64,000 nucleotides of DNA, taken from Pirellulales bacterium. Its GTDB lineage: Bacteria > Planctomycetota > Planctomycetia > Pirellulales > PALSA-1355. The notes under the pieces are model-generated. The model ran no database searches. It was not told the origin of the DNA and saw only the letters and a list, made by a program, of their open reading frames with translations. Shown piece after piece: positions 3,281 to 54,398 of the stretch. The position numbers and the translations under genes are program-made. The stretch covers positions 96,001-160,000 of the forward strand of contig CAVTBU010000007.1 of the NCBI GenBank assembly GCA_963733035.1, in the 5' to 3' direction. Numbering within the stretch: position 1 is the first letter of the stretch; each line of letters opens with the position of its first letter.

Positions 3281-3284
3281 CGCC

Positions 3285-7220: not shown

Positions 7221-7265
7221 TCCGAGTCGAATCGCCCGACGAACCTCCTTGATCGCTGAGCAATC

Positions 7266-8306: not shown

Positions 8307-9202
8307 GTATGCCTTCGTTGGCCATCGACCGCCGCACGAACCTGCTCGCGCGCGTGGCCGATTATGTTGAGCTTACGAAACCCAAGATCGCCGCGCTTGT
8401 GCTGGTGACCGTGGCCGTGGCGGCGTTTGTTGCCAGCTGGGGTCCGCCAAGCGGCTGGCTGCTCTGGCACACGCTGTTGGGCACCGCGCTGGTCGCCGCC
8501 AGTGCGAGCGCGCTGAACCAATGGCTCGAGCGCGACACCGATGCGTTGATGATTCGCACGGCCGATCGCCCGTTGCCAGCCGGTCGGCTATCGAACGGTC
8601 AGGTGCTGGCATTTGGCTTCGCGACGATCGTGCTGGGCACGGCCTACCTGGCCACCAGCGTCAGCCTGCTCACTGCGGCCTTGGGGCTGCTAACCTGGGC
8701 GATGTATGTGGTTGTTTACACACCGCTCAAACGCCGCACGGCCGCCAACACCGCCGTGGGGGCCGTCGCCGGCGCGCTGCCGGTCTTGATGGGCTGGACC
8801 GCCGTCGGTGCGCCGCTCGATTTGCGGGCCTGGTCGCTGTTCCTGATCGTCTTCTTGTGGCAGTTTCCGCATTTCATGGCCATCGCCTGGATCTATCGCC
8901 GCGATTACGACGGCGCCGGCCTGAAAATGCTTAGCACGGTCGATCCGAGCGGCGTGCGCGCGGGCACGCAGGCCATTTTGGCGGCAATGGTTTTAGTGCC
9001 GGTCAGCATCGTGCCGTGTTTGTCTCAGCCGGCCGGAAGCATCTTTCTGGTGTGGGCCCTGGTGTTGGGCGTGGGACAGTTGCTGTGCGCGTTTTCTTTC
9101 TTCCTGCAAAAAACCGATTCGGCGGCGCGGCGCTTGTTACTGGCGTCGCTCTTGTACTTGCCCGCCATGATGGGGCTGTTGGCCCTGGGGCCATTGGCCT
9201 GA
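8303..9202 (+). CDS. ctaB: Protoheme IX farnesyltransferase
   Basis: [33 protein letters not shown] and WQFPHF. ATGA overlap with ctaA. Confidence 0.95.
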
Positions 9203-9251
9203 TGAAACATTTGCGAATGATCGTGTCTTAGAAAGGTTGGATGAGCAAACG

Positions 9252-10241
9252 ATGGCCACGACCCATGCACCCGCCGAACACGCTGATCACGGCCACGTCG
9301 GATTGGAATACCATCCGGGCTTGCCGATTTCCAACGGCAAGTTGATCGTATGGCTGTTCTTGTCGACGGAAATCATGTTCTTCGCCGCGCTGATTGGCAC
9401 TTATATCGTGCTGCGGTTCGGTGCAGCGACTTGGCCCTTACCGCACGAAGTTCACCTCAGCGAACCGATCGGGGCGTTCAACACGTTCGTGCTGATCTGT
9501 TCTAGCGTCTCGATTGTGCTGGCTCTCGAAGCAGCAAAGGTCAATAAAGCGGCCGCGGCCAAGGGCTGGCTGCTGGTGACGCTCGCCTTGGGGAGCGTGT
9601 TTTTGGGGGTCAAACTGTACGAATACAACGCCAAGTTTTCGCACGGCATCTATCCCTGGAAGCCGCACAGCCAGATCTGGGAAAAGGCCGACTTGAACTA
9701 TGCCGCGGCCGTACGCGGGCGGCTCGACGCGCTCAATGCCGGGTTCGAGACAGAGAATTCCGCACTGACCGAAAAGTATGCCGACAACCCTGAATCGCTC
9801 GAGAAAGATCCCGCCGCCGTCGCATTGCGAGAAAAGCAGGCGCTGGTTGCCAAGCTGATCGAAGAGGAGAAAGCGGCCGAGATCGCCGCGGCTCAGGCAA
9901 CGAATGTCGCCGTGGCTCACGCCGCATTGGACGAACTGGCCGAAAAGATCATGCCTCTGGGGCACGCTCCCGGCGAGGAGCCGCACCATGGGCTTAACGA
10001 CCAGCACGCCTGGCTCCGCCTGCCGATCGTGATTCCGGGCGGCAACATGTGGGCGAGCACCTACTTTCTGCTCACCGGTTTTCATGCCATCCACGTGCTA
10101 GTGGGGCTGATCGTGTTCGCCATCATGATCCCGATGACCCTGGGCGTGATGGCGACCGGCTTCGTCGAGAACATCGGCCTGTATTGGCACTTTGTCGATT
10201 TGGTGTGGATCTTCCTGTTCCCGCTGCTGTATCTGTTCTAG
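9252..10241 (+). CDS. coxC: Cytochrome c oxidase subunit III (short form with a large soluble insertion)
   Basis: [28 protein letters not shown] and YWHFVDLVW. Confidence 0.92.
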
Positions 10242-15893: not shown

Positions 15894-16949
<1,056 letters not shown>

Positions 16950-17815
16950 GCTCCAGGGCTTGGAGCTTCGCGCCCGCTCGATCGTCGAAGGCTACGTCTC
17001 CGGCGTGCATCGCAGTCCGTTTCATGGTTTCTCGATCGAGTTTGCCGAGCACCGGGAATACAGCCCGGGTGACGACCTGCGGTATGTCGATTGGAAAGTT
17101 TTCGGCAAGAGCGACAAAATCTACCTGAAACAGTACGAGGAAGAGACCAACCTCGTCTCTTATCTGCTGCTCGATACCAGCGAGAGTATGCGCTACAAGA
17201 GCGACCGGGCGGCGCTCTCGAAGCTCGAATACGCCCAGTGCGTCGCGGCAGCCCTCTCGTACCTCATCTTGCAGCAGCAAGACAGCGTGGGCCTGGCAAC
17301 GTTCGACAGTGAAATCCGTTCGCTCGTCCGTCCCAGCAGCAACCCCTCGCATCTCAAACAACTCTTGCACGTGATGGAGCACGCCGAGCCGCAGCGCAAA
17401 ACGCACACTGGGCCGATCTTTCATGATCTGGCCGAGCGGCTCAAACGCCGTGGGTTGGTGCTGATCCTCAGCGACCTGTTCGACGATGTGCCGTCGATGC
17501 TGGCCGGGCTGAAGCATTTTCGCCACCGCCGTCACGACGTGATCGTGTTTCACGTGCTCGACCCGGCGGAACTCGAGTTCCCATTCCGTCAGACAACCTT
17601 GTTTCGCGGAATGGAACAAATGCCCGACGTGCTGACCGACCCGCATGCCTTGCGGCAGGCCTATCTGGACGAATTCGGCAAGTTCCTGCAATCGGTGCGC
17701 AAAGGCTGCCGCGGCCAGCGAGTCGACTATGTACTACTCCGCACGGATCACTCTTTGGAAGTGGCGCTTTCCAGCTACATCGCTTCGCGTATGAATCGGA
17801 TTGCTTGATCGACGA

Positions 17816-20020
17816 ATGTTTACCGGCGTGCCACTGTTGGCGTTTGGCTTCGGCAACCTCCTCATGTTGGGATGGTTGGCGGCGGCCGCTGCGCCGATTT
17901 TGATTCACCTTTGGAACAAGCGCCGCTATCGCGAAGTTTCCTGGGCCGCCATTGAATACCTGCTAGCCGCGATGCGGAAGAACTCGCGCCGCATGCGGAT
18001 TGAGCAGCTCATTTTGCTGATCATGCGCACGGCCATCATCGTGCTGCTGGTGCTGGCCGTGGCACAGCCGTTTTTCAACCAGATCGGATTGCCGTTTGTA
18101 CCGGGCCAGCGAACGCTCAAGGTGCTCGTGCTCGACGGTTCCTATTCCATGGCCTATAAGCCGACCGACAAGAGCCGCTTCGATCGGGCCAAGGAGCTCG
18201 CCGAACAGATTGTCGACGAGAGCGCACAAGGGGACGCGTTCACGTTGATTTTGATGGGCGATCCACCCCAGGTGGTCGTCGGCACGCCCGCCGTGGAACC
18301 GTCCGATTTCGTGCAGGAGATTGAAAACCTGTCGCTACCCCATGGCGGAGCCGATTTGCCGGCCGCATTGGATCAAGTCGAGCGGGTGTGCCAGTCCGCT
18401 TCGAGCGCCGGCTTGTCGCGGACCGAGGTCTATTTCCTCACAGATCTGGGCCGCAACACCTGGGTGCCCGAGGCAAAGGACGCGGCCGTGTCCGACTACC
18501 GGCAGCGACTGGATCGACTGGCCGCGCAGGCGTCCCTGGTCGTGCTCGACCTGGGACAGACCGGCTGCGAGAATCTGGCCGTCACGTCCGTTGACGCCGG
18601 CGCGCCTTTCATCACGACGGCCCACGAGGCAGCGCTGTCTGCTCAAGTTCGCAATTTCGGCGGCCAGGCCCGGGAGCATCAGTTGGTCGAATTGCACGTC
18701 GATGGGCGGCGCGTCAAGGAGAGCTATGTCGACGTTGCCGCGGGCGAGCAGGCGACAATTGCCTTCAACCATCGTTTCGACGCGCCGGGCGATCACGTGG
18801 TCGAGGTTCGCCTGGAAACCGACCTGCTCGACGTGGACAATCACCGCTGGCTTTCGGTACCAGTGAAAGATCACGTCCGTGTGCTGTGCGTCAACGGCAA
18901 GCCCGGCTCGGGGCCGATGACCGGCGCTACGGATTATTTGGCTCTGGCGCTCAATCCGGGCAGCGGCGATTCTCAATCGTCCAGCGTCGTGACGGCCGAG
19001 GTGATCGCAGAAAGCGCGCTGTTGGAGCGCGACCTAACGCAGTACGACTGCATTTTTCTCTGCAACGTGGCGCAGTTCACCTCGAGCGAGGCGCGATTGC
19101 TCGACGGCGTGTTGCAGCGCGGCGGAGGACTGGTATTTTTTCTCGGCGATCAGGTGTTGGCCGATCGCTACAATCGCGAACTCGGCGGCGAACAGGGAGT
19201 GCGGATCTTGCCGGCCAAACTCGGCAAGGTCGTGCGCAAAGCGCAATACCAATATCGCTTCGACCCGCTCGACTACCGGCATCCGCTGGTCGACGTATTC
19301 AAAGGTCGCGAACAATCGGGGCTGCTTACCACGCCGGTCTACACATATTTTCACCTGGACGTCGATCCCGACGCCAAGGCCCGCGTTGCGTTGGCCTTTG
19401 AAGGGGGCGATCCGGCAATCGTCGAAGAAGCGATCCATCGGGGCCGTTCGATTCTGGTGGCCACCGAGTGCTCGCGGTCGTCGGTCGATCCAACGAGCCA
19501 CGATCCCTGGACGACAATGCCCGTCTGGCCGAGCTTCGTGCCGCTGGTGCAGGAACTTGTGGGCTTGGCCGTCAGCGGACAGAAGGCCGAACACAACGTC
19601 GAGGTCGGCCAGACGCTTGGCGAATCGTTGGCCGCAATTGCCAGTCGGGCCACGGTCAGTGTTACCAACCCGGCCGGGGCGACCGAGGAAGTTCGCATGA
19701 CGCTCGATCCGACGAGCAGTCGGTGGTCGTACACCGACACACAGCAGAGCGGTGTCTATCAAGTTGCACTCGGCGCGCCGCTCGGCGGCGAAGAGGCCTT
19801 TGCCGTGAACGTGGACACGGCCGAAAGCGACCTGACCAAGATCGACCCCGACGAACTTCCTCGCCAGTTCGCCACGCATCGGCAGACAAACCTCGACGAT
19901 GTCGAGTCGCCCACGATTCAAAAACGCAGCGGCCTGCACAAATTGTTGCTCTACTGCGTGCTCGGTCTGCTGTTGACCGAAACGTTTTTCGCCTGGTGGT
20001 TTGGACGCGCAACGCGATGA
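17816..20020 (+). CDS. BatA N-terminal domain plus vWA membrane protein
   Basis: PILIHLWNKRR....WAA...L and LAVAQP (BatA-like), MIDAS DGSYS, CARDB-like and GATase-like regions, C-terminal TM helix. Confidence 0.88.
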   Translation: MFTGVPLLAFGFGNLLMLGWLAAAAAPILIHLWNKRRYREVSWAAIEYLLAAMRKNSRRMRIEQLILLIMRTAIIVLLVLAVAQPFFNQIGLPFVPGQRTLKVLVLDGSYSMAYKPTDKSRFDRAKELAEQIVDESAQGDAFTLILMGDPPQVVVGTPAVEPSDFVQEIENLSLPHGGADLPAALDQVERVCQSASSAGLSRTEVYFLTDLGRNTWVPEAKDAAVSDYRQRLDRLAAQASLVVLDLGQTGCENLAVTSVDAGAPFITTAHEAALSAQVRNFGGQAREHQLVELHVDGRRVKESYVDVAAGEQATIAFNHRFDAPGDHVVEVRLETDLLDVDNHRWLSVPVKDHVRVLCVNGKPGSGPMTGATDYLALALNPGSGDSQSSSVVTAEVIAESALLERDLTQYDCIFLCNVAQFTSSEARLLDGVLQRGGGLVFFLGDQVLADRYNRELGGEQGVRILPAKLGKVVRKAQYQYRFDPLDYRHPLVDVFKGREQSGLLTTPVYTYFHLDVDPDAKARVALAFEGGDPAIVEEAIHRGRSILVATECSRSSVDPTSHDPWTTMPVWPSFVPLVQELVGLAVSGQKAEHNVEVGQTLGESLAAIASRATVSVTNPAGATEEVRMTLDPTSSRWSYTDTQQSGVYQVALGAPLGGEEAFAVNVDTAESDLTKIDPDELPRQFATHRQTNLDDVESPTIQKRSGLHKLLLYCVLGLLLTETFFAWWFGRATR

Positions 20021-22398
20021 GCGGAACCTTGCCAGATTGGCTCGAGCGATGGCTCGGCGTGGACGCCGCCAGCCCGGGCGAGGGTACGGCCTGGACGCTC
20101 GAAAACACCTGGAGTTGGGCACCCTGGGCGACGTTGCTGTTCGTGCTGTTGGCCGTCGCTTGGGTCACCTTCATCTACGCGCGCGAGAGCACTTCGACGG
20201 GCCGCGCGGTGCGGGCCCTGCTGATCGCGATTCGCCTGGCGTTGGTGGCGATTGTGGTCTTCATGCTGGCCGAATTCACGCTCTCGCTTCGCCGCACGGG
20301 GCTGCCGACGGTGGCCGTGCTGGTCGACGACTCGGCCAGCATGGGAATTCAAGACCGCTACGACGAAAAGCGGCTGCAGTCGCTGGTGGCCAAGCGCATT
20401 GAATCGGCCGAGCTCGAGTCGCCCGATCGTCTCGGCCTGGCCAAGACCGTGCTGCTCAAAAAAGGCACGAACCTGCTCGAGTCCGTCGAGCGACGCTACC
20501 GTCTGAAGCTGTACTTTGTGTCCAGCGCCGCACGAGCGGAGGAAGGCAACCTGGCGGCGATGCGGAAAGCCGTTGAGCAACTGCAGCCGCAGGGAGAAAG
20601 CTCGCGACTGGGGGCCGGTGTGCGACGCGTGCTGGGCGATTTGCGCGGCTCGCCTCCCGCGGCCATCATTCTGCTTAGCGACGGTGTCAACACCGACGGC
20701 GAAAGCCTCGAAGACGCCGCTCGCTATGCGCGTCAAAAGGGAGTGCCGCTGTTCACCGTGGGCATCGGCAGCGAACAGCCGCTGCGCGATCTGGAACTGG
20801 CGGATCTATTGGTCGACGATGTCGTGTTCGTCGACGACGTGGTGAACTTCGAATACAAACTCACCGGCCGGGGACTGGCCGGCAAAACGGTCGAAGTCGT
20901 GTTGCATGAAAAAGACGACAACGTGGTGCTTGCTCGGATGAAAGTCGTCATCGACCAGGACGGTAAGCCGCAGCGGCTGCACTTGCCCTATCGACCCAAC
21001 CAGGTTGGCGAATTTGAATACGTGCTCGAAGTCGAGCATTTGCCCGACGAGGCCCAGCCCGACAATAACAGCCAGCTTCGGCTGATCAGCGTTCGCAAGG
21101 AGCAAATCAAGGTGCTGCTTGTGCAGGGTTATCCAAACTTCGAGTTCCGCTATCTCAAGCACATGCTCGAACGAGATAGCACGATTCAACTTAAAACGGT
21201 GCTTCAAGATGCCGACCTCGAGTATGCCGAGTTGGATGAGACCGCGCTGCGCGTGTTTCCGGTGCGCCGCGAAGAGCTGTTCGACTTCGACGTCGTGATC
21301 TTCGGTGACGTCAACCCGACGTATCTCAGCACGAGCGTAATGGCCAACCTGCACGACTTCGTTGAGAAGAAGGGGGGAGGTGTCGCCTTCATTGCCGGCC
21401 CGCGCCATATGCCACTCAGCTACGGCGGTACGCCCATCGAGCCGCTCCTGCCGATCGATCTGTCCAGCGTCAGCGTTCCCGATCCGAGCCAGCCGATCGA
21501 AGAGGGCTTCGTTCCCCGGCCGACGGACTTGGGGATGGTCAGCCCGCAGATGCAGTTGGGCGACAATGCCGCCGAGACGGCCCGCATCTGGGCGGACTTG
21601 CCACCGATGTTTTGGCTGGCCGACGTCCAGCAAGTGAAACCGGCCGCGCGCGTCCTGGCCGAACATCCGACGCGGTTGGCCGCTGATGGAGGTCCGCTGG
21701 GCGTATTCATCATGCAATATGTCGGCGCCGGCAAAGTGCTGTTTCACGCCACCGACGATACCTGGCGCTGGCGCTTTCGCGTGGGCGACGTGTACTTTGC
21801 CCGCTACTGGGTGCAGGCCGTGCGTTATCTTAGCCGGTCGAAACTGCTCGGCCAGGATACCGACGTCGAACTGACGGCCGACCGTCGCGAGTATCGACGC
21901 GGAGAGCCCGTGCAACTGCGCGTGCGATTCATCGATGAACGACAGGCGCCGGTAGCCGATGACGGAGTGACGGTCATCCTCGAGCGCGAGGGACAGCCGA
22001 ACCAGCGCGTCAAGCTGGTCCGCAACGCGACCAACCGCGGCATCTTCGAAGGTTCGTTCAACGAAGCGGTCGACGGCAAGTATCATGCCTGGGTCAGCAC
22101 GCCCACGCTCGAAGGCCAGGCCGCGGGAACCGACTTCCTCGTCGTTGCGCCCCCCGGCGAGTTGGAACGCATTCAGATGGATGCTGGGACGCTCAAGTTG
22201 GTGGCCGATGAAACGCGAGGTCGCTTCTACCGTATTCGTGACGTCGATCGACTACCCGGCGACTTGCCGCCCGGTAATCAGGTGCCCATTGAAACTCTGC
22301 CTCCCGAAGTGCTGTGGAATCGTTGGTGGCTCCTGGCAGCTTTCTTGGGTTTGATCACGTCGGAATGGATTCTTCGTAAACGCAAGGGAATGTTATAA
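20017..22398 (+). CDS. vWA plus glutamine-amidotransferase-like membrane protein
   Basis: ATGA overlap at 20017, 2 N-terminal TM helices, MIDAS DDSAS, LLSDG, DVVIFGD, TWRWR, C-terminal EWILRKR. Confidence 0.85.
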   Translation: MSGTLPDWLERWLGVDAASPGEGTAWTLENTWSWAPWATLLFVLLAVAWVTFIYARESTSTGRAVRALLIAIRLALVAIVVFMLAEFTLSLRRTGLPTVAVLVDDSASMGIQDRYDEKRLQSLVAKRIESAELESPDRLGLAKTVLLKKGTNLLESVERRYRLKLYFVSSAARAEEGNLAAMRKAVEQLQPQGESSRLGAGVRRVLGDLRGSPPAAIILLSDGVNTDGESLEDAARYARQKGVPLFTVGIGSEQPLRDLELADLLVDDVVFVDDVVNFEYKLTGRGLAGKTVEVVLHEKDDNVVLARMKVVIDQDGKPQRLHLPYRPNQVGEFEYVLEVEHLPDEAQPDNNSQLRLISVRKEQIKVLLVQGYPNFEFRYLKHMLERDSTIQLKTVLQDADLEYAELDETALRVFPVRREELFDFDVVIFGDVNPTYLSTSVMANLHDFVEKKGGGVAFIAGPRHMPLSYGGTPIEPLLPIDLSSVSVPDPSQPIEEGFVPRPTDLGMVSPQMQLGDNAAETARIWADLPPMFWLADVQQVKPAARVLAEHPTRLAADGGPLGVFIMQYVGAGKVLFHATDDTWRWRFRVGDVYFARYWVQAVRYLSRSKLLGQDTDVELTADRREYRRGEPVQLRVRFIDERQAPVADDGVTVILEREGQPNQRVKLVRNATNRGIFEGSFNEAVDGKYHAWVSTPTLEGQAAGTDFLVVAPPGELERIQMDAGTLKLVADETRGRFYRIRDVDRLPGDLPPGNQVPIETLPPEVLWNRWWLLAAFLGLITSEWILRKRKGML

Positions 22399-22454
22399 TT
22401 GCGGCGCTGGTGACGGCCCCACGACGTCGCCGGGCGCAAGAGGATGATTTGTGC

Positions 22455-25400
22455 ATGGCACATCCGCTGGAACAAAAGATCGGGCAAGTTCGCCGGCGAG
22501 CTCGTTGGCTACTGGGGCTATATGCCCTGGGGTGGACGTTCGGCATCGTGCTGGCCGCCGTGCTCGTGCTCACGCTGGCCGACTATCTGATCCGCTTCCA
22601 GGATCCCGGTGTGCGCGTGATGGCGTCGCTGAGCATGGTGGCCGTCTTGGGCTGGGCCGTTTATCACTTCGTGGTTGTCGGTTTTGCAGACTCGAAATTG
22701 GGCGACGTGCAGATCGCGCGCCGCATCGAACACCGGTTTCCGAGCCTCACCGACCGCCTGGCCAGCACCGTGCAATTTCTCAGACAACCGGAACTCGATC
22801 CGGCGGCGGGCAGCGTCGCGCTGCGCCGGGCGGTGATCCTGCAAACCGAACATGACGTGGCGGGGCTTGACGTCTCACAGGTCTTCGAACGGGGGCCCAC
22901 CCGCCGTGCGCTCGCCTTTGCAGGTGTACTGGCGCTGCTGTCCATGTTGTTAGTGGCGCTATCGCCCGGCAGCGCACGGATCGCGCTCATGCGGCTTACA
23001 CGTCCGCTGGGCGACGACGTCTGGCCGCGGTTCTATCACGTTGAATTTCGAACTCCTCCCTCGCGGTTGGCCGCCGGCCAGAATTTCGAAGTGGAGTTGC
23101 TGCAGGACGTTGGCCATCGCGTGCCCGACGACGTGCGGATCCACTACCGCTATAAAACCGGCCCGCAAACGTACGAGGAAGAGGTCGACGGCATGAAGTG
23201 GGTCAACGGCGCGCTGGTGGCCCGCAAAGATAACGTGCAGCGTCCGTTTTGGTATCGGGCCGAAGGGGGCGACGACTCGTCGATGGGCTGGCTCCGGCTC
23301 GAAGTGCTCGAAGCACCGCGGCTGGGTCCCACTCAAGTCACGCTGTACCCGCCTGACTACACCGGCTTGCCCGCGGAAGAAAGCGAGAAGAGCATTCATG
23401 CGCTGCGCGGTACGCGGATCGGACTGGCAGGTACCGTGACGAAGAAAGTCGTACGTGCGACGCTGCACCACGAGGATGGCAGCCAGCTGCCGCTGCAAGT
23501 GGCGGAGGACGGCTATTCGATCTCGCTCGCAGCCGACGCGGCCGAGCCGTTCGTAATCGACAAGACGGGACAATATTGGATCGAATTGGAAGACTCCGAG
23601 GGCCTTGTCGGCGGCGCGGAAGACCGCTGGGACATTCGCGCCATTCCCGATCTCGAACCGACCGTCACGATCGAAAAGCCGGGCACCAATGTTTACATTA
23701 CTCCGCAGGGTGAAGTCTCGCTGGCCGTCGCCGTGAAAGACGATCTGGCGATTCACAATATCGAGTTGCACTTTAGTCGCTCGGACCGCACGGACGTCGA
23801 GGACTTCGCCGTGTCGCTCTACCAGGGACCAGAGCGCGCGCCGCGTCAAACCGAAACCGGCCTACTGCTGGGCGGTAAGCTCGGCGAAAGTCGCGTCGTC
23901 GAGCATCGCTGGTTGCTCTCCGAACTAAAGCTGGAGCCCGGCGTCCAGCTGACCTTTTGGGCGAGCGCCACGGATTACCTACCTCAATCCGGCAAGAGCA
24001 CGGTTCGCAAGATCACGGTCATCACGCCGGACGAGCTCGAGGAGCGTCTGGCTCAGCGTCAGACGTTAGTCCTGGGAGAATTGCAACGCGTGCTGAAGCT
24101 TCAGCAAGATGCCCGCTCGCAGACCCGCTCCCTCGAAATTCAAGTGAATGACGTCGGTCGCATCGGCAAGAGCGACGTCGATCATGCTCAGTCCGCCGAG
24201 TTAAACCAGCGGCAAGTGACCCGCACGCTCACCAGTCCGACCGAGGGCATTCCGGCGCAGATTGCCGAATTCCTGGCCGAGTTGCGCAGCAACCATGTCG
24301 ACAGTCCGGGCGTCGAGCGGAACATGACGGGCATCCTCGACAAAATCGAGCGGCTCAATCAGCAGCACCTTGGCACGGTCGAGAGCGAATTGACGAGTTT
24401 CATCAAGGGATCGCAGGCCAAGCTGGCGGACGAATCGGTGCGCGACAGCGGCACGGCCGAGCCGGATTCCCAATTGAAGGAGTCGCTCGCGAGCGCCGGC
24501 CAAAATCAGGATCGGGTTGTTGAGTCGCTCGAACAGATGCTCAGCGAACTCGGTCGCTGGGACAGCTACCGCAGGTTCGCGCGTGATGTCTCGCAGCTCC
24601 AGCGCGACCAGGAAGAGATCGCGCGGCAGACCAACGAACTGTCGCCGCGGACGCTCGGTCGCGACTTCAAGGATCTCCCGGATCAGCAGCAGGCCGACCT
24701 GCGGAAACTCGCCAGCCAACAAGCCGAGTTGAGTCGGCGCCTCGAAAAGACGCAACAGCAAATGGCCGAAATGAGCCGCTCGCTCGGTGAAACCGACCCC
24801 ATCGCCGCGGCTACAATTTCCGACGGCTTGCACCAGGCTCGCCAGCAGGCCATCAGCGATTCGATGCGCAAGAGTGGCGATCAACTCGAAAAGAACCAAC
24901 TTGGCCAGGCCACCGGGCTACAGCAAAAAATCGCCCGCGACCTCGAGGACCTGCAGTCAATTCTGTCGAACCGCCGCGAACAGGAACTCGCCGCGGCTGG
25001 TAAAGCAACTCCGCGAAGCCGAGCAGGAGATGGCCAAACTCCGCCGGCAGCAGGCCGGCCTGCGCAAGAAGATGAAGGACGCCGAGAAAATCTCCGACCC
25101 CGCGGAGCGGAAACGCGAGTTGGAACGACTCACTCGAGAACAAAAGCAACTCGAAACAGAAACGGCGCGATTGGCGCGCAACTCCAGCGCTTGCAAGCCG
25201 AACAAGCTGGTAGCAGTACCTCGTCGGCCGCTGGCAAAATGGCCGGCGCCGGTCAGCAGGGCGAACAGGGCGACGCCGGCGGCGCTCAGGAGCAGGCCGC
25301 GCAGGCCGAAAAGGACCTCGAGGAAGCGGCCCAGCAGCTGGCCGAGCGCCGCAAACAGGCCGAACAGGACCTGGCCCGCGAACAGCTCGCGCGGCTTGAA

Positions 25401-26186
25401 GATTCGCTCAAGGGTTTGCTCGATCGACAGGAAAAGCTGATTCAGGAGACGCAACGATTGCAGCAACTCCGCGCCTCGGCAGGACGCCTTTCGCGGGCGC
25501 AATTGGCAACGCTCGGCGATTTGGCGCGACAGCAGTCGGGGCTTGGCGGAGAAACTTCACAGTTGGCCGAAAAACTCGAACTCACCGAGGTAATCAACTT
25601 GGCGCTGAGCGGCGCCGCCAGGCACATGGATCGCGCCGCCGAACTGCTCGAGCTGCGCGATACGGGCACGCAAGCCCAAGGCGCCCAAGAGGCCGCTCGC
25701 TTGCGTTTGGCGCAATTGATCGCGGCGTTCCAGAACAAAAACAAACCTGGCGACAAGGAGGGCGCTGGAGGCGGAAATTCGGGCGGAGGTGGTTCCGGCG
25801 GTCGCTCCGACGGCGGCTTCGTCCTCACGCAGCTCAAACTGCTCAAGCTGATGCAGGAAGATCTCAATGATCGCTATCGGGGCTTGGTTTCCGAGGGCGA
25901 CGAAAACCCGCGCGACGTGCGGCGACAACTCTCCGAGATAGCCGAAGAGCAGGGGCGGTTAGCCGAACTAACGCTTAAGCTTTCCGAGCCCGAGGTCGAC
26001 AATCCCGAAGATCATCCGGAGAAACTACCGGACGTACGCCAGGACGGCGATGCTTCGCCAGATGGTCTGCTGAAGGATCTGGAAGCGTTGCCGAATCTCG
26101 ATTTGGGAGAGCCGGCCGAAGCAGTTCCGGACGAAGTTCCGCCTCCCGATGCCGCAACCGATCCGGCCGTCAAGGAGCCTTCGTAA
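22455..26186 (+). CDS. Large membrane-anchored coiled-coil protein (DUF4175-like); compensating indels near 24992 and 25180
   Basis: 3 N-terminal TM helices, beta-rich region (PPDYTG, DLEPTV), then long Q/E/L heptad helices. Confidence 0.8.
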   Translation: MAHPLEQKIGQVRRRARWLLGLYALGWTFGIVLAAVLVLTLADYLIRFQDPGVRVMASLSMVAVLGWAVYHFVVVGFADSKLGDVQIARRIEHRFPSLTDRLASTVQFLRQPELDPAAGSVALRRAVILQTEHDVAGLDVSQVFERGPTRRALAFAGVLALLSMLLVALSPGSARIALMRLTRPLGDDVWPRFYHVEFRTPPSRLAAGQNFEVELLQDVGHRVPDDVRIHYRYKTGPQTYEEEVDGMKWVNGALVARKDNVQRPFWYRAEGGDDSSMGWLRLEVLEAPRLGPTQVTLYPPDYTGLPAEESEKSIHALRGTRIGLAGTVTKKVVRATLHHEDGSQLPLQVAEDGYSISLAADAAEPFVIDKTGQYWIELEDSEGLVGGAEDRWDIRAIPDLEPTVTIEKPGTNVYITPQGEVSLAVAVKDDLAIHNIELHFSRSDRTDVEDFAVSLYQGPERAPRQTETGLLLGGKLGESRVVEHRWLLSELKLEPGVQLTFWASATDYLPQSGKSTVRKITVITPDELEERLAQRQTLVLGELQRVLKLQQDARSQTRSLEIQVNDVGRIGKSDVDHAQSAELNQRQVTRTLTSPTEGIPAQIAEFLAELRSNHVDSPGVERNMTGILDKIERLNQQHLGTVESELTSFIKGSQAKLADESVRDSGTAEPDSQLKESLASAGQNQDRVVESLEQMLSELGRWDSYRRFARDVSQLQRDQEEIARQTNELSPRTLGRDFKDLPDQQQADLRKLASQQAELSRRLEKTQQQMAEMSRSLGETDPIAAATISDGLHQARQQAISDSMRKSGDQLEKNQLGQATGLQQKIARDLEDLQSILSNRREQELAAAGKATPRSRAGDGQTPPAAGRPAQEDEGRRENLRPRGAETRVGTTHSRTKATRNRNGAIGAQLQRLQAEQAGSSTSSAAGKMAGAGQQGEQGDAGGAQEQAAQAEKDLEEAAQQLAERRKQAEQDLAREQLARLEDSLKGLLDRQEKLIQETQRLQQLRASAGRLSRAQLATLGDLARQQSGLGGETSQLAEKLELTEVINLALSGAARHMDRAAELLELRDTGTQAQGAQEAARLRLAQLIAAFQNKNKPGDKEGAGGGNSGGGGSGGRSDGGFVLTQLKLLKLMQEDLNDRYRGLVSEGDENPRDVRRQLSEIAEEQGRLAELTLKLSEPEVDNPEDHPEKLPDVRQDGDASPDGLLKDLEALPNLDLGEPAEAVPDEVPPPDAATDPAVKEPS

Positions 26187-43842: not shown

Positions 43843-44000
43843 GGCCGTTAGCGTAACCTGGAACGAAAGGGCAGGAAAGCCGAGCCATATTTGCAATGTC
43901 ATCGAAGCCTGGTTCCCATTGTCCCCAGGCGCACTAGAATACTCTTGGCCTCGTCACCTGCTCTCCATCATTGCATCATGATTCACTGCGAGGATTCTTC

Positions 44001-46069
44001 ATGCGCCGCTGTCTGCTTTCTTTCGTTTGCCTGGGAGGTTTGCTCTTGTCCACCGAACCAGTTGCTGTCGCCGGGCATCCGCTTTCGCTTGCCGACCTGT
44101 TTGCCATGCAGCGGATTTCCGATCCGCAGGTCAGTCCCGATGGCAAGAGCGTGGCCTATGTCGTCGGCGTGGTCGACAAGGAGAAGAATGCCAGTACTTC
44201 CACGATCTGGCTGGCGCCGACCGATGGCGGCCATCCGCGGCAACTGACCGGCGGACCAAAGCACGACAAGCACCCGCGATTCAGCCCCGACGGCACGAAA
44301 CTGTTGTTCGAGTCGGACCGATCGGGCGACACGCAGTTGTGGATACTCGATTTGGCCAGCGGGGGCGAGGCACGCCAGCTGACCACGATTGCCAGCGAAG
44401 CCAGTACCGGCATCTGGTCGCCTGACGGCAAGTGGGTCGCCTTCGTCTCGGCCGTCTATCCCGAGTACTCCGGCCAACCGTTTATCGAAAGCAATGCGGC
44501 TAACAAGAAGCGGAAAGAAGAGATCGAAAAGAACCCGGTCAAGGCGCGGATATTCGACAAGTTGTTCTTCCGCCACTGGGACTCGTGGGTGGAAGGCAAG
44601 CGGCAGCATTTGTTCGTGATGGCGGCCGACGGCGGTGAGCCCCGCGATCTGACGCCCGGCGATTTGGATGCCTATCCCACGTCGTCGACCTTTTCGATGG
44701 GGGACGACTTCACCTTCACGGCGGATAGCTCGGCAATCGTTTACACCGCGCCGGCCGTGCGCGATGAAGCCTGGAGCACGAATCACGATCTGTATCGCGT
44801 GCCGGTAGCGGGCGGAAAGCCGGAGAACCTGACTGCGGATAACCCCGCCGCCGACAGTTGCCCACGCTTCAGTCCCGATGGAAAGTGGCTGGCGTACCGC
44901 GTCAGGCGAAGGCCGGATTCGAAGCCGATCGCTGGCAACTCATGATCGCCCCGTCCGCTGGCGGCACGCCGCGCAGCATCACGGCGTCGCACGACCGATC
45001 GATCGACGCCTTTGTGTGGGCCGACAACGAGACGATCTATTGCACCTCGGAGCGAAACGCGAACATTCCCCTCTGCAAGATCGGCGTGAAGGACGGCAGC
45101 CTCACTGAAGTTGCCACTGGCGGCGTGTTCGGTTCGCCGAGTATCAGCCGCGACGGCCAGCATCTGACCGCGGCGCACGCATCGATGAACGCCCCGGCGG
45201 AAGTCGTGCTGTTCGCTACGGCCAGCGGCAAGCTGCGGAATCTTACCGAGGCGAACCAGGCCCTGCTCGCCGACGTCACCATGAACAAGCCACAAAGCGT
45301 CATGGTAAAAGGGGCCGGCGGCACACCCATGCAGATGTGGATCGTTACGCCGCCCGGTTTCGACGCGAAACAGAAATGGCCCCTGGTCTACCTGGTGCAT
45401 GGCGGGCCGCAGGGGGCCTGGGAAGACGGCTGGAGCTACCGCTGGAACCCGCAGCTATGGGCGGCCCAAGGTTACGTCGTCGCTTTGCCGAATCCGCGCG
45501 GCAGTACCGGGTTTGGTCAGCAATACGTCGACGAGATCAGCGGCGACTGGGGGGGAAAGGTCTTCGACGATCTGATGGCCGGTGTCGATTACCTGGAAAA
45601 GCTGCCGTACATCGACACCACGCGAATGGCCGCCGCCGGCGCATCGTTCGGTGGCTACATGATGAACTGGTTCGAGGGGCACACGGACAAGTTCAAGACG
45701 CTCATCACCCACTGCGGCGTCTACAACTTCGACAGCATGTACGCCACGACCGAGGAACTCTGGTTCGACGAATGGGAGCACGGCGGCCCCCCCTGGGAAA
45801 GCCGCGAGAGCTACGAAAAGTTCTCGCCGCACCTGTACGCCAAGAACTTCAAGACGCCGATGCTGATCATCCACAACGACCAGGACTTTCGCGTGCCAAT
45901 CAGCGAAGGCCTGATGATGTTTACCACGCTGCAGCGCCTTGGTATCCCCAGCCGGATGGTCAACTTTCCCGACGAGGGCCACTGGGTGCTCAAGCCGGCC
46001 AATAGCGAGTACTGGCACCAGGAAGTGTTCGACTGGCTGAAGAAGTACGTGCCGCCGGGACCGAAGTAG
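44001..46069 (+). CDS. S9 family exported peptidase (dipeptidyl aminopeptidase-like); apparent frameshift near 44901
   Basis: Signal peptide, PD40 repeats (SPDGK), VHGGPQG, NPRGSTG, nucleophile GASFGG, DFRV and EGH. Confidence 0.92.
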
Positions 46070-46108: not shown

Positions 46109-46414
46109 CTACTGCTTGGCCGGCGACTCAGTCGGATTCGACGTGATGACGTGCTTTCCTGCTCGGAGCCGATAGACGCGATGCATCGGCTGCCACGGCG
46201 TTCGGAAAGCCGCGCGAATGCGTTGGGCATCGCCATTAAAACCGGCGGCTTGCAGTTTGTCCGCGGCTTCCAGGGCGAAATCCACCCGGTCACCGCCGAG
46301 GAAAGTCGGATAATCCAACAGGGTCGGCCGGGAATAGGGTGGAAAGTCGTCGTCGTTGGCGGTCGCGGCCGACAGCCATGTGAGTCCCATAAAACACGTT
46401 AGTAGAAATCGCAT
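46109..46414 (-). CDS. Small secreted hypothetical protein carrying the LxAAG helical motif
   Basis: GGAGG SD, signal peptide ending ATA. The segment EAADKLQAAGFNGDAQRIR matches the two upstream genes. Confidence 0.7.
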   Translation of the reverse strand: MRFLLTCFMGLTWLSAATANDDDFPPYSRPTLLDYPTFLGGDRVDFALEAADKLQAAGFNGDAQRIRAAFRTPWQPMHRVYRLRAGKHVITSNPTESPAKQ

Positions 46415-46549: not shown

Positions 46550-47728
46550 TTAGCGATTTCCTTTCGCGTGTCCGTGCGCCGACGCCGTGACCGGCGGTTG
46601 GGCGGTGACCAGTTCCGGAGTCACCAGCACCATCAACTGCACCTGGTCCGCGCACGCTTCCTCGTTGCACGCCGCGCCCTGTTCCTTCCGCTTTTGCCGC
46701 TGCTGCAACAAGCCGCACAGAACGGTCGTGTGGCCTGGCTTGACCTCGAAGCCGGTATCGACCATCAGCGTTCGCAGACCAGGGACCTTCAGCCCCTGGT
46801 TTTCGGTATCGCGCGACGGGTCGTGTTCGGTGAACTCTCCTCGAAGTCCGACGCGGAGTTTCCCGTCCGCGGCGGGCGTCACGACCGCATCGATGGTGGT
46901 CCCGACATTTCGCAGGGTGTAAGTCAGGGTTCCGTCCGAGTGCGTCACAGGCACTGCAACTTCGTCGCCCACTTGATAGCGCGCAGCGCGGCCAAACACC
47001 GTTCCGACGGTCGGCGCCGAGAGCACTTTCAGACGCTTCTTCTTGCTCAACTCTTGAATCTCACTTGCAATTTCATCCGTCTTGCAGGACGTCAGCCGAA
47101 ACGGTTCCTGGCCGTCCGGTTGGCAATGGGACAGCGCGCGACCTGGTTTCCGCATTTCGGCCACCGGCACCTCGACGAATTCCAGCTTGAGCAGAACTTG
47201 TTGTCGACGGGCAACGCGCGTTTGCAGCGCTTCGATCTCCTTGTGAAGTCGGTCCAGCTCAGCAATCTTTTGCGCCAGCAATTCCGTTCGGACCTGTTCG
47301 GCGCGAACCGCCAATTCCTGGGCTTCGACCGGCAGGCCCGCCGCCAACAAGTGCTCGACGGCCTTGTCCAAATGTTCCAACTGCAGGGCGGTCAACGTTT
47401 CCGCATCGTCGCAACATGCGTCGGTGCAGCAATCGTTGTCGCTGGCCACGGCCTGATCGCAACACTCCGAATGCGGGCAATTCTCGTCCGACGCTTTGGC
47501 GACGCTGGTGCAACAGACGCTGTTTCGGACACCATGAGCTTGACAAGCCGACGCGACGTCCGTAGCCACCGCCTCGGGACAATCGCTCGCAAGCGGACAG
47601 TGCTTCGCCTGGGCGCAGGCCGATTTCTGACACGCCACTTCCTTTGGACACGAAGCACAGGGTTCTTTGGCGCCGCTGAGCGACGGCCACACCAACATTG
47701 CCATCAGTATGAAAGCAGCACAACGCAT
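46550..47728 (-). CDS. Cys-rich protein with a C-terminal CpaC/RcpA-like secretin domain
   Basis: GGAGG SD, signal peptide, Cys-rich region, coiled coil, then QVLLKLEFVEV...KVLSAP...VGDEVAVPV...VPGL...LVTPELV. Confidence 0.78.
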   Translation of the reverse strand: MRCAAFILMAMLVWPSLSGAKEPCASCPKEVACQKSACAQAKHCPLASDCPEAVATDVASACQAHGVRNSVCCTSVAKASDENCPHSECCDQAVASDNDCCTDACCDDAETLTALQLEHLDKAVEHLLAAGLPVEAQELAVRAEQVRTELLAQKIAELDRLHKEIEALQTRVARRQQVLLKLEFVEVPVAEMRKPGRALSHCQPDGQEPFRLTSCKTDEIASEIQELSKKKRLKVLSAPTVGTVFGRAARYQVGDEVAVPVTHSDGTLTYTLRNVGTTIDAVVTPAADGKLRVGLRGEFTEHDPSRDTENQGLKVPGLRTLMVDTGFEVKPGHTTVLCGLLQQRQKRKEQGAACNEEACADQVQLMVLVTPELVTAQPPVTASAHGHAKGNR

Positions 47729-47815
47729 TGAAGCACCTCCATGTTTCGAAGTCTCGGCGTTCCTAGGGCGCAATCACACCACGGGCGTGTCGTGCCATCG
47801 CCGAAAACGGGTTGA

Positions 47816-49399
47816 TTATTTTGATTCGTTGGCTTTCGGGAGCTTGGCCATTGCCGGAGCCGACGTGTCGATCAACTCAGGCGTCACGAGAAACAATGTT
47901 TGCACCTCGCTGCGAACCGTTTTCGTCTCCGTTGTGAACAGACCGACATGCTTTTCGGCCGTCACCCGCTGCTGCACCTGTCCACCCAGGACGGCGGTTT
48001 GGCCCAATTCCATGTCAAAACCGGTTTCGATCTCTTGAACCCGGAGACCTGGGACCTTGATGCCGACGGCCTTCATCCCAAAGTAAGGATCGAGTTGCGT
48101 CACCTTGGGGTGAATTGCCAGGCGGACCCGATTCGCGGCGATGAAATCCAGGGCGGCATCGATCCGCGTGCCGAAATCCTGGAGCTTGACTTCGATAGAC
48201 TTGTCGGGACGCACGACAGGAGTGGCCACGCTACCGCCGCTGGTAAATGATGCCGGTTGACCATCGAGCATCAGAAGGGTCGCTGACGCCAACTCCTTGG
48301 CCAGATTTTGATTCTGGAGCGCTGAAACCAATCCACGGATTCCCTCGGGGTCTCCCAACGTAAGCGTAATTCGTCGCCCCTTAATCGTTTCTTGGCCGTT
48401 CGTTGAATCGCTCGACTCGTTGAAGAGTGCCGCGGCAAAACCGAGATGATTCAAACTCGTCAATGAAACTTCGAGCACCTGGACACGAAGGGCAACTTGC
48501 TTTGATGCAGGTCTACTGACATGCAACTCCTCCAGTTCGCCCTGTAGCCGTGCAAGTTCGGCCGCCTGTTGCTTTACCAGCTCCTGACGTTGTCGTTCGG
48601 CTCGATGGCGAACCTTCTCGGCCTCGTCCAATAGCCCTGCCGCGGCCAGGTGCGTCGCGGCCTCGTCCAAGTGTTCCAACTGCTCGACGGTCATCGTCTC
48701 CTCGTCGGTACAAGTCGACTCAGCGCAGCACGTGCCCGCAGGGCAAACGGCCACGGTCGCGGCGCAGCAGGCGTCAGTAGCGACCTCTTGCTTACAGCAC
48801 TCCGATTGCGGGCACTGCTCATCGGAAGCTGTGGCAACGGCTTCACAGCTTCCTTTCTTGCAGCACTTGCCCTTCGTGCAGTCTCCGGCGACGTCGGTCG
48901 CGAGCGCCTCGGGACATTCACCACCTTCGCAGCACGCTGCGGTTTTGGCACAAACGCCCGCCGACTTGCAGCACGCTTGATCTTCCGCACTCGCACCTTT
49001 GCAAGCGCAAGTCTTGGCCTTCGCGGCCAGCTTGCCGCAGCTCGTCCCAGCGCCGCAAACGACCATGTCGCCGAACATCGCCCCACTGGTCTGGGTGTCG
49101 ATGGAACCGGCTTGGCAGGACTCGCCCTCACATGCTTTGTTCGCGTTGCACGCCTGCCGGGCTCCGCAAGCCTGGACTCGGCCAACAGTCGTCGGGGCTT
49201 CGTAGGCGGCCGCGTCTTGGCAGGCGGTGCCTTTGGCACATGCCTTCGTGTGGGCACGCGCCGTGTGGAACGCGGCCGCATTCGCCGAAGCCGCCGGGCA
49301 ATAGGCCTCTCGTGGACAGGCCGGCGCCCGGTCTCTGCCTTGGCCCAAGCACGGGTATGCCAAAAGCAGCGCGATCAGACATCCGAATGCAATCCGCAT
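47816..49399 (-). CDS. Longer paralog: Cys-rich protein with a CpaC/RcpA-like secretin domain
   Basis: GGAGG SD, signal peptide, 33 Cys in about the first 230 aa, then QVALRVQVLEVS...DGQPASFTSGG...FGTRID...GQTAVLGG...LVTPELI. Confidence 0.8.
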   Translation of the reverse strand: MRIAFGCLIALLLAYPCLGQGRDRAPACPREAYCPAASANAAAFHTARAHTKACAKGTACQDAAAYEAPTTVGRVQACGARQACNANKACEGESCQAGSIDTQTSGAMFGDMVVCGAGTSCGKLAAKAKTCACKGASAEDQACCKSAGVCAKTAACCEGGECPEALATDVAGDCTKGKCCKKGSCEAVATASDEQCPQSECCKQEVATDACCAATVAVCPAGTCCAESTCTDEETMTVEQLEHLDEAATHLAAAGLLDEAEKVRHRAERQRQELVKQQAAELARLQGELEELHVSRPASKQVALRVQVLEVSLTSLNHLGFAAALFNESSDSTNGQETIKGRRITLTLGDPEGIRGLVSALQNQNLAKELASATLLMLDGQPASFTSGGSVATPVVRPDKSIEVKLQDFGTRIDAALDFIAANRVRLAIHPKVTQLDPYFGMKAVGIKVPGLRVQEIETGFDMELGQTAVLGGQVQQRVTAEKHVGLFTTETKTVRSEVQTLFLVTPELIDTSAPAMAKLPKANESK

Positions 49400-49461
49400 C
49401 GTATTACCTCCATGGTTCCGGCCAATGAAACGCCGTTTCCGCCGAGAGCAGGCGGGCGAGG

Positions 49462-52770: not shown

Positions 52771-52875
52771 GGGGAGAAGGCAGAAGTAGGAAGGATGAGA
52801 AAGAATCAGCGTCCAACGTAGCGGTGAATCCAAGTCTCACTCATCCTTCATCCATCCGCCATCATCGTTCACTTC
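52771..52875. repeat. Two inverted arrays of degenerate TCxxCCT heptamers
   Basis: Plus strand from 52841: tcatcct tcatcca tccgcca tcatcgt tcacttc. Minus strand from 52798: tcatcct tcctact tctgcct tctcccc. GAAGGATGAG (52790-99) is the reverse complement of CTCATCCTTC (52840-49). Confidence 0.7.
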
Positions 52876-54398
52876 TACTTCGAGTCGAACCGTTGGATCA
52901 CGACGGCTTCGCGAATTTGCTTGCTGTTGGGCTCATAGACGCGAATTGTTACGCGGACGCCGCGCAGCGGAGTTAGATAGGGAGGATGCGTATCGAATTC
53001 AGCCGCTTCATCTACAAGCCCGTTTCCGTTGTCATCCAATCCGTTCGTGCCGGCGTCCATGAATCCATCTCCATCTTCGTCTATACCGTTGTTTTCGTAG
53101 TGCAGGGACCACGTATCATAAACGCGCCATGCAGGGATAAACGCGCTGAGTGGCTTTCTGTCCGGATTCTGCGCCGAAAACTGGGAGTTCGCCGCAGAGT
53201 AATAGCCCAAATCGGCATATGCCCCCATGCTGATAACTGTACTGGCAGCCGGCCATCCTGGATCGCCAGGTTCTAATGCAACCGTTCCGGAACTGTCAAC
53301 TTTGACCGGTGCGTCAGCATCCCATACTCGCACATCAAATGCGAGGACGTTCGTTAGCAGTACGTCATCGCCAAGTCTCTGGCCAGCCATCGGTTTAAGT
53401 AGGGCATTTTCTTGCGGCGACGAGTTTAGTGACGCGGGCATCACCGGTGTTCCCGGCGAAGCAAATGGCACCGATGGTATCACGGCCGGGTCACCACTGA
53501 AGGGAAACGAGAAAGACGAAATTCCGTAGTGCGCGAACCTGTTCTCTCGCTTGGTAAGATCGCCAAGCGAGTTTGGAACCATCGTCGGCGTTCCTGAAAT
53601 TGTCTCGAACCGGGCTGATAGGTCATTGTCTGTTCTGAAACTGTTCAGCGGACTAGAAGTTTGCCCGACGTTCGGCGACACCAACAACACCCGTCGATAG
53701 AGCGTGCACAGTTTTGTCGGAACTGGATTATTCATTGAGTCCACGACGCTCGCGTCCATGATCGGCCCGTCTTGCACGAGGAAATAAATCACCTCGGCGA
53801 GCGGCGACTCAATCGTGGTGTTTACGCCACCAACGAGCGCTTTACCCACGAACGGCGCGCCTCGACTGCGAACCGTGAACATCAAAATGTCGTCTGTATC
53901 GCCAAACAGGGTCCAGCTCGCTGGAGGACTTACGCCGGATATGCTCGACTTTATGCCGTTTGCCTGCGCAATCCTTCGCGGATGATCGTCATTAGATGCG
54001 CCCTCAACGATCTCAAAATACCCCTCGTCCATTTCCGGGCGAAGCGGCGGGGCCATCGTTGCGGTGGCACCTTGCAAATCGCGTTGGATCTGGTCGCGGG
54101 CGGAGCCGAGGCGTTCGGACATTTCGATCAGCGTGCGGCTGGCCGAGACGCTATCGCTGAGCACGCCAAACAGCGTCACCACGGCCCCCATCATGATCAA
54201 CGTGATGGCCAGCGAGACCAGCATTTCAATCAGCGTAAAACCGCCCCGGCCGCTCGCGCCTCGCACGTTTAGCCCGAGCAGCATCGCTGCCGGCGCGTCC
54301 GCCCGAGCGTCGTTCGACAACTCGGCGCGAACCCGTACGGGCGGTCTGCCAGTCGATAGATTCCCCTGGGCAATTGGGGTGGGAAGATTCATGGCCAT
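52875..54398 (-). CDS. Prepilin-type N-terminal methylation domain protein (PilW/PulJ-like minor pilin)
   Basis: G|FTLIEMLVSLAITLIMM class III signal, IQRDL, C-terminal NGIDEDGDG/NGLDDNGNG loops and LRGVRVTIR. Start codon uncertain. Confidence 0.85.
   Translation of the reverse strand: MAMNLPTPIAQGNLSTGRPPVRVRAELSNDARADAPAAMLLGLNVRGASGRGGFTLIEMLVSLAITLIMMGAVVTLFGVLSDSVSASRTLIEMSERLGSARDQIQRDLQGATATMAPPLRPEMDEGYFEIVEGASNDDHPRRIAQANGIKSSISGVSPPASWTLFGDTDDILMFTVRSRGAPFVGKALVGGVNTTIESPLAEVIYFLVQDGPIMDASVVDSMNNPVPTKLCTLYRRVLLVSPNVGQTSSPLNSFRTDNDLSARFETISGTPTMVPNSLGDLTKRENRFAHYGISSFSFPFSGDPAVIPSVPFASPGTPVMPASLNSSPQENALLKPMAGQRLGDDVLLTNVLAFDVRVWDADAPVKVDSSGTVALEPGDPGWPAASTVISMGAYADLGYYSAANSQFSAQNPDRKPLSAFIPAWRVYDTWSLHYENNGIDEDGDGFMDAGTNGLDDNGNGLVDEAAEFDTHPPYLTPLRGVRVTIRVYEPNSKQIREAVVIQRFDSK

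Follow-up and report, generated by a model that had tools for sequence, protein, structure and literature searches.

Secretins are parts of larger machines, namely those of type II and type III secretion, type IV and tight-adherence (Tad) pili, and filamentous phage export. The literature presents them as homo-oligomers whose conserved amphipathic loop mediates insertion into the outer membrane, where they form rings of 12 to 15 protomers that resist heat and SDS. We analysed a 64,000-nucleotide stretch of DNA from a Pirellulales bacterium (hereafter the window; C7:96001-160000 of a 6.6-Mb genome in 10 contigs) in which two adjacent genes, called A and B, code for short proteins that combine a Cys-rich region with a secretin core. 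Both are very probably exported secretin-fold proteins of an orphan family. The analysis establishes their domain make-up, fold and family membership and the features that they lack, and it shows that no cognate machine is encoded in cis. On balance, we lean towards the idea that they belong to an outer-membrane-associated ring devoid of a dedicated filament machine, probably built jointly of A and B, whose helices would form a collar and whose tail would be disulfide-bonded.

The closest described system is the Tad secretin RcpA/CpaC (PDB 8odn; PF13629 and PF00263), whose core is most similar to those of A and B. However, A and B are devoid of its VirB9-like/PF13629 N-terminal domain, of the CpaC-type C-terminal extension, apparently of the tail that binds the pilotin TadD, and of the amphipathic helical loop (AHL) motif. 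They are not encoded with Tad genes, occur as tandem or fused pairs, and add a helix-turn-helix, a long helix and a Cys-rich tail. The classic minimal secretin, pIV of filamentous phages (PDB 7ofh), has an N0 domain and works with phage inner-membrane proteins; in contrast, A and B have neither N0 nor a phage context, and their similarity to pIV is weak. Relative to GspD and PilQ of type II secretion systems (T2SS) and type IV pili (T4P), they lack the N0, Secretin_N, AMIN and S-domains. The features of the pair are the following.

47816..49399, reverse strand: gene A, orphan short secretin of 527 aa (open reading frame (ORF) list, translation, Pfam Secretin, AlphaFold2 model)
49406..49411, reverse strand: ribosome-binding site GGAGGT of gene A, 6 nt before the ATG (upstream sequence)
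49340..49399, reverse strand: A residues 1-20, putative signal peptide (MR, hydrophobic core, ..CLG/QG; read by eye, model helix 2-14)
48704..49339, reverse strand: A residues 21-232, Ala/Cys-rich low-complexity tract with 31 Cys (14%) and 23% Ala (composition; predicted local distance difference test, pLDDT, <50)
48509..48703, reverse strand: A residues 233-297, helix-turn-helix motif (HL..AA.HL.AAG) and long helix, a coiled-coil candidate (model)
48260..48508, reverse strand: A residues 298-380, N3-like beta-alpha-beta-alpha-beta unit with a disordered loop at 327-341 (model; aligned to solved secretins)
47864..48259, reverse strand: A residues 381-512, secretin beta-hairpin core without AHL motif (Pfam, RcpA alignment, model)
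46550..47728, reverse strand: gene B, orphan short secretin and paralog of A, 392 aa from the ATG (ORF list, alignment to A, Pfam Secretin)
47735..47740, reverse strand: ribosome-binding site GGAGGT of gene B, 6 nt before the ATG at 47728 (upstream sequence)
47405..47668, reverse strand: Cys-rich tract of B, 16 Cys in ~88 aa (composition)
47201..47404, reverse strand: helix-turn-helix motif and coiled-coil candidate of B (aligned to A's helices; motif hidden Markov model (HMM) E 5e-11)
46604..47200, reverse strand: N3-like unit and secretin core of B, with 5 extra Cys (Pfam, alignment to A)

The Pfam Secretin model (PF00263) matches A with 51 bits and B with 50.2 bits, above its cut-off of 27.5. 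A profile built from 16 family members and compared with solved secretins has RcpA of the Pseudomonas Tad system (8odn) as its first match (E 1.1e-36), with an alignment spanning both N3-like unit and core; a further 21 solved secretin sequences rank after it, pIV being the weakest of the 22 (E 6.9e-5). Both results bear out the CpaC/RcpA-like core proposed in an earlier interpretation made from the letters of the window (the sequence-only reading). The machine-specific NCBIfam models (MshL, PilQ, GspD, HofQ and SctC) score far under their cut-offs with A and B, those of GspD, PilQ and MshL reaching 15-28 bits for cut-offs of 250-351. Pfam searches at E≤1 detected no N0, Secretin_N (PF03958) or AMIN domain in A or B, nor a PF13629/VirB9-like N-terminal domain, for which the CpaC protein of the same genome scores 56.7 bits.

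The structure of A was predicted as a single AlphaFold2 monomer model from a 16-sequence alignment. Residues 238-518 are modelled at pLDDT ~90 and comprise a short helix (238-253) and a 39-residue helix (257-295), both at pLDDT ~95 and separated by a turn at the AAG of the motif, followed by the beta-alpha-beta-alpha-beta unit and then by long beta-hairpins. The model and the alignment to solved secretins both place an N3-like unit before a long beta-hairpin secretin fold in A. The Cys tract (residues 19-232) is predicted with pLDDT <50 and almost no secondary structure. In its strict form, the helix-turn-helix motif occurs in A and B alone in their genome. Both proteins end 15-17 residues past the core, with Pro/Ala-rich tails, whereas planctomycete CpaC-type proteins have at least 50 residues more.

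The Pfam alignment covers profile positions 1-131 in A and 2-133 in B, out of 169, while the CpaC- and GspD-type proteins of the same genome align over positions 1-169. Within the core, the family has a 12-residue gap exactly opposite the most conserved loop of RcpA in the HMMER alignment, and the same deletion is seen in side-by-side alignments with the CpaC and GspD of the genome. At this position, the model of A has a tight hairpin (468-485/490-510) and no helix, and two of the five extra Cys of B, in a C-x4-C arrangement, occupy the place where the AHL would be. A relaxed regular expression for the AHL matches 1/132 short modules, 1/10 modules of fused proteins and 17/29 long proteins of the representative set; two of the 12 long proteins missed have clear spelling variants of the loop, and most of the others are members of the short family with longer tails. 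Passages in PMC8134430, PMC6532946 and PMC10499894 present the AHL as the secretin signature and most conserved region, present in all solved secretins and implicated in membrane insertion.

Two adjacent paralogous ORFs had been claimed in the sequence-only reading and were indeed found, their products being 37% identical over 377 columns (E 1e-58). The alignment and the upstream sequences likewise contain the blocks CPEA[LV]ATDVA and ASDE[QN]CP[QH]SECC and the leader CATGGAGGT..ATGCG, all common to A and B as that reading had it. An alternative start of B, a TTG at 47773, would give a 407-aa protein (ORF 46550..47773). Judging from the upstream sequence, the ATG at 47728 is the more likely start; the 392-aa representative P0009 of the profile search described below matches the ATG-start form and was taken as B in the analysis. 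Lipoprotein anchoring of A is unlikely, as there is no standard lipobox and a Pro precedes the only candidate Cys at -1. A promoter and terminator scan revealed no promoter-like sites and two terminator-like sites, both on the wrong strand and fewer than in shuffled sequences. Seven sequencing runs were listed, none of them of RNA, and they contain small shares (0.06-0.16) of the sampled words, which bears on neither expression nor habitat.

A word-index homolog search with A returned three proteins and missed B, low-complexity words having swamped the candidates, and it was replaced by an exhaustive profile search. The latter yielded 29,964 representatives at E≤1e-3, of which 2,021 reached E≤1e-30; most of the best 150 are 250-450 aa long and span the whole profile. 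Searches of the genomes of relatives likewise gave short secretin ORFs aligning into the helical region. The members, with gene starts in relatives chosen by eye, begin with a signal peptide; a low-complexity tract and a helix-turn-helix, both optional, come next and are followed by a coiled-coil-like helix, the N3-like unit and the core. They end 10-35 residues after the ..VTPE.. strand. The helix-turn-helix motif is found upstream of 61/172 modules. Many members are conserved and intact, with invariant Gly, Thr and Pro columns. In a tree of 171 core modules, computed with FastTree only, A and B belong to one strongly supported clade of 41 rows in which they are not sisters, B being on a long branch (1.25). 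A CpaC-type clade of 16 rows, including the CpaC of the same genome, adjoins the short family.

A and B are thus two members of a large family of short orphan secretins, which we saw only in Planctomycetia. Among 121 sampled genomes of the phylum, 91 have a match at E≤1e-10; strong matches that reach the helical part of the profile were found in three genomes of the same class besides that of A and B, and matches in other classes are limited to the core. We found no description of such a family in the literature searched, to which subscription papers and supplements did not belong, and NCBIfam holds no specific model for it. Some members lie in a hopanoid biosynthesis cluster, where the short secretin gene is on the same strand between genes for a squalene-hopene cyclase and an hpnH-like radical-SAM/DUF3463 protein on one side and a PNP_UDP_1 (hpnG-like) gene on the other (L025 8513-14039 in G014 and L027 8481-13321 in G024). 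In G006 (L017 146-2284), shc and hpnH are upstream of the short secretin gene, and the contig is too short to show whether an hpnG-like gene follows. The short secretins of these three genomes form one well-supported subclade.

The genome that harbours A and B contains five secretin genes. The three others sit in recognisable clusters. A Tad-like operon codes for an A24 peptidase, RcpC/CpaB, a 590-aa PF13629-Secretin protein, a CpaE-like protein, T2SSE and two T2SSF proteins. A T2SS-like cluster codes for T2SSJ, T2SSK, a PilM-like protein and a GspD-like protein of 1047 aa with five Secretin_N domains and one Secretin domain. The third secretin is a PilM-linked, PilQ-type protein of 1307 aa. 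Unlike these genes, A and B have no Tad, T2SS or T4P machinery among the 41 window ORFs scanned. The sequence-only reading, according to which no such genes flank the pair, therefore needs a single amendment, an ORF for a 507-aa prepilin-type N_methyl protein (52875-54398, reverse strand). It has no other Pfam domain, its GC content at third codon positions (GC3) is unusually low (0.63), and no other pilus-type gene exists in the window; two forward-strand genes lie between it and A.

A pattern scan was run over named genomes and its 80 best loci were surveyed, with the six Tad proteins of the A/B genome as probes and a reach of 6 kb. All 80 are from Planctomycetota (Pirellulales, Pirellulaceae, Thermoguttaceae, Botrimarina, Blastopirellula, Thermogutta and unclassified metagenome-assembled genomes). 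A Tad probe match lies within 6 kb of all 68 genes coding for a long, CpaC-type C-terminal extension, and 65 of these 68 have an AHL-type motif. In contrast, both are absent from the five short genes with the helix motif, i.e. the orphan type (0/5 and 0/5); three of these five loci belong to genomes that had already been examined. The two short genes without helix motif (L052 and L074), which resemble truncated CpaC genes, have both (2/2 and 2/2), and among five genes cut by a contig end, four have a Tad probe match and all five an AHL-type motif. Similarly, the Pfam annotation of 13 relatives' loci placed none of the short secretins next to a Tad, T2SS or T4P gene cluster, the pilus-type genes seen there being a convergent T2SSE-family ATPase gene in G019 and a DUF1559/N_methyl gene in G017. 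Thus, homologs of A and B are not routinely embedded in Tad operons, whereas ordinary CpaC genes of this phylum are, in agreement with the orphan status that the sequence-only reading had given them.

These data bear on the idea that A and B act in trans as alternative outer-membrane secretins of the genome's Tad machine (or of its T2SS or T4P), e.g. under particular conditions, which we consider unlikely. The proximity of their core to RcpA/CpaC, the position of the short family next to the CpaC-type clade, and the presence in the genome of a complete Tad operon, with a prepilin-type gene 3.5 kb from the pair, are compatible with such a role. However, the Tad operon has its own secretin, and the orphan-type loci are apart from Tad genes in both the survey and the annotation. 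In addition, A and B have neither the C-terminal extension of the 68 Tad-linked genes nor the AHL motif found in 65 of them. They also lack the N-terminal domain that RcpA and other secretins use to dock periplasmic partners, as described in passages of PMC10499894.

We next turn to the Cys-rich tract. A contains 33 Cys, all in residues 1-230 (two of them in the signal peptide), with six CC pairs. B contains 17 Cys in residues 16-121 of the TTG frame (one of them in the signal peptide), with four CC pairs, and five later Cys. The hand counts of the sequence-only reading (33 and 17 Cys, with CC pairs) were exact, the five further Cys in the C-terminal half of B having been left unmentioned. With 21 Cys, the densest 100-aa window of A ranks joint fifth in its genome, among 41,973 six-frame ORFs with a length of 80 aa or more, a density far from chance. 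Other extreme Cys-rich ORFs of the genome (C5:1014778-1015446, C5:2130820-2131680, C5:1754082-1754504 and C5:1088337-1090772) were noted; such ORFs have up to 35 Cys per 100 aa, and among them are xxxxxCC heptads and YTV-type repeats of the kind typical for wall proteins of planctomycetes.

Cysteine-rich YTV proteins have been found in planctomycete wall preparations and their motif is confined to Planctomycetia, according to passages of PMC8567305 and PMC12673574. Like these proteins, which are restricted to the same class, A and B are predicted to be secreted and are very rich in Cys. In contrast, neither A nor B has a YTV tripeptide, and their Cys tract is fused to a secretin.

The composition of the tract is peculiar. 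That of A has no CxxC, one CxC and six CC motifs for 14% Cys; that of B has one CxxC, no CxC and four CC motifs for 16% Cys. In A, 14 Cys-to-Cys spacings are of 5 or 6 residues, against ~4.3 expected at random. Among the 14 Cys-rich members, the tract contains 18-30% Ala and 9-22% Cys, and the tracts of other clades have different patterns, including regular CxxC repeats. In one clade (P0038, P0050, P0051 and P0053), Cys-rich sequence with regular CxxC or KCS repeats is also inserted in the N3 loop.

A dense Cys tract is present upstream of 25/171 modules. Its presence requires 13 changes on the tree, at least six of them forced by well-supported branches, for a mean of 23.7 after shuffling. 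In sister pairs, the tract is 45-49% identical and the core 61-74%, with 60-68% of the Cys columns conserved under an alignment matrix that favours Cys matches; the tract comparison between G003 and P0057, for which the segments were mismatched, was left out of these figures. Among close relatives, G014, P0010 and P0013 have a Pro-rich tract and G016, G024 and G028 have none. The tract gave no Pfam or NCBIfam match at E≤1, searches in which low-complexity domains are easily missed, and a Protein Atlas search with residues 21-300 of A gave no usable match. The tract looks like a segment selected for the composition of a flexible tail, not for a fixed metal-cluster fold.

Could it nevertheless be a periplasmic metal-binding (metallothionein-like) or redox domain, the ring being a metal store, a sensor or a metal-gated pore? 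We regard this as quite unlikely, even with so high a Cys density and with relatives (P0011, P0053 and P0077) that have 7-11 CxxC in regular repeats typical of metal sites. The tracts of A and B resemble metallothioneins in being Cys-rich and of low complexity and in having CC pairs. Unlike metallothioneins, they are nearly devoid of CxC and CxxC clusters, Ala-rich, spaced with a period of five to six residues, evolutionarily labile and predicted to be periplasmic; their Cys density is about half that usually quoted for metallothioneins. They have few His, and Cys residues tend to form disulfides in the oxidising environment of the periplasm. The type of motif varies from clade to clade, the Cys positions turn over, and close relatives have a Pro-rich sequence or nothing in place of the tract. 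Thus, of the proposal of the sequence-only reading that N-domains are replaced by metallothionein-like regions, the first half stands, as the RcpA/CpaC N-terminal domain is absent, and the second does not. The same can be said of that reading as a whole, in which the secretin identity, the missing N-terminal domain and the lack of a machine in cis hold, and the likeness to metallothioneins does not.

The pair lies in a slot between lactonase and S9-peptidase genes that is conserved in the genus, and its content varies. Here (G000), A and B are two genes with a signal peptide each. In G003 (L022 7866-11453), the slot is filled by one 1195-aa open frame that codes for 82 Cys, one signal peptide and two modules, the degenerate first module running directly into the second Cys tract, motif, helix and core. 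G002 has the same fused form, split over two contigs (L021 and L020). In G001 (L019 9849-11051), a signal peptide, Cys tract, motif and helix/coiled coil are followed by a stop, with no secretin after it. In another genus, the slot of G007 (L024 8540-9766) similarly holds an N-module-only gene, and a 255-aa short secretin adjoins the S9 peptidase in G016. Five further fused double modules are found among the representatives (P0008, P0010, P0013, P0030 and P0109). The fused halves are sisters in two of the five and far apart in the tree in P0010 and P0013; therefore, fusion or duplication occurred more than once. Finally, G059, from a different family, has three consecutive secretin-like genes on the same strand (L028 9316-12546), the first two coding for short secretins without Cys tracts and the third having a weak Secretin_N match. 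Gene fusion supports the notion that A and B may act in one assembly, and it is this fusion that hints at a contact between them.

The variation of this locus within one genus (split, fused or N-module only), the degenerate module 1 of G003, the long branch of B and a GC3 below that of the neighbours might also be expected of a decaying, functionless secretin duplicate. This is very unlikely, as both frames are intact and have ribosome-binding sites and putative signal peptides, the core was modelled with high confidence from only 16 sequences, and the family has many conserved, intact members with invariant columns. The possibility that A and B are pIV-type secretins of an integrated filamentous phage is practically negligible and was rejected on gene context, since the flanks are housekeeping genes in a slot syntenic across the genus, no phage-like genes were seen around the pair in a scan that did not include PHROGs, and pIV is the weakest match of the 22 solved secretins.

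We thus return to the machine-independent ring that we favour. Both proteins keep an N3-like unit and a double-hairpin secretin fold, and they have lost the RcpA-type N-terminal domain, the C-terminal extension and the AHL. Before the core, they carry a helix-turn-helix, a long helix and a lineage-variable low-complexity tail, which is rich in Cys and Ala in A and B. After export, A and B may co-assemble into one multimeric outer-membrane ring that works without a type-IV-filament machine, and their helices may form a periplasmic collar. The Cys tail would be oxidised to disulfides that stiffen the ring or tie it to a Cys-rich layer of the planctomycete envelope, rather than store metal; we infer a physical link of the tail to the wall layer by such disulfides.

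Several observations weigh against this ring. The identification of the deleted segment as the AHL is drawn from its conservation, the wording of the papers and general knowledge of secretins, rather than from coordinates, and loss of the AHL could mean that A and B do not insert into the outer membrane at all. The instability of the locus within the genus, with G001 reduced to the N-module and module 1 of G003 degenerate, could mean relaxed selection, and the GC3 of A and B is 0.67-0.70 compared with 0.75-0.82 for their neighbours. In addition, the core of A is nearest to module 2 of G003, and its signal peptide is like that of module 1; split and fused forms are therefore not simple equivalents. 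Lastly, the Foldseek TM-scores of the A model reach only 0.19-0.25, a low range explained by disorder in nearly half of the model and by the difference between the hairpins of a monomer and those of assembled rings.

A bolder version of the ring, which is possible but rather doubtful, would be an obligate hetero-oligomer of alternating A and B protomers, perhaps with a small protein encoded downstream, that has no insertion loop and no type-IV-filament or type-III machine and is stitched by disulfides into the wall of Planctomycetia. We know of no solved secretin with two alternating protomers. Such a hetero-ring could be a structural envelope pore, e.g. part of the crateriform pits or a conduit linked to lipid traffic at the outer membrane, the latter being suggested by the existence of family members in hopanoid operons.

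The new element here is a large family of short Planctomycetia secretins without N-terminal domain, C-terminal extension or AHL, encoded apart from Tad genes and with fused sister forms. The family appears to break three rules of secretins: a machine encoded in cis and the amphipathic loop are both missing, and two-gene or fused two-module forms recur. Its members are numerous in a bacterial class of environmental importance, about whose envelope little is understood. Should the ring be real, it would provide a minimal secretin for assembly studies without pilotins or docking partners, and a concrete candidate for an unexplained structure of the planctomycete envelope. Tails rich in Cys or Pro provide a link between a defined protein and reports of a planctomycete wall that is largely protein and contains Cys-rich proteins.

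The small protein mentioned above is encoded by an ORF downstream of B.

46109..46414, reverse strand: small secreted ORF of 101 aa, without Pfam match, which might conceivably provide a third component

In each of the four genomes of the genus, this ORF (DDFPPY.RPT, then AAD.L.AAGF..DAQ.IR) is conserved immediately downstream of the locus. Its diverged AAG helix motif is the third-best match of the motif profile genome-wide (E 0.2).

The other neighbours of A and B code for a lactonase, a beta-lactamase-family protein, an S9 peptidase and an acyl-CoA dehydrogenase. In the window, the S9 peptidase is split into two overlapping forward-strand ORFs, 43971-44945 for the PD40/DPPIV_N part and 44858-46069 for the Peptidase_S9 part, whereas it is a single ORF of 686-702 aa in G003, G007 and G016; the split could result from a frameshift or an assembly error, or mark a pseudogene. 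Elsewhere in the window, an aerotolerance-type operon (15894-26186, forward strand) codes for a MoxR AAA_3 ATPase, a DUF58 protein, a BatA/VWA protein, a VWA protein and a DUF4175 protein, and a cytochrome c oxidase cluster is found upstream of it, at 3270-10241.

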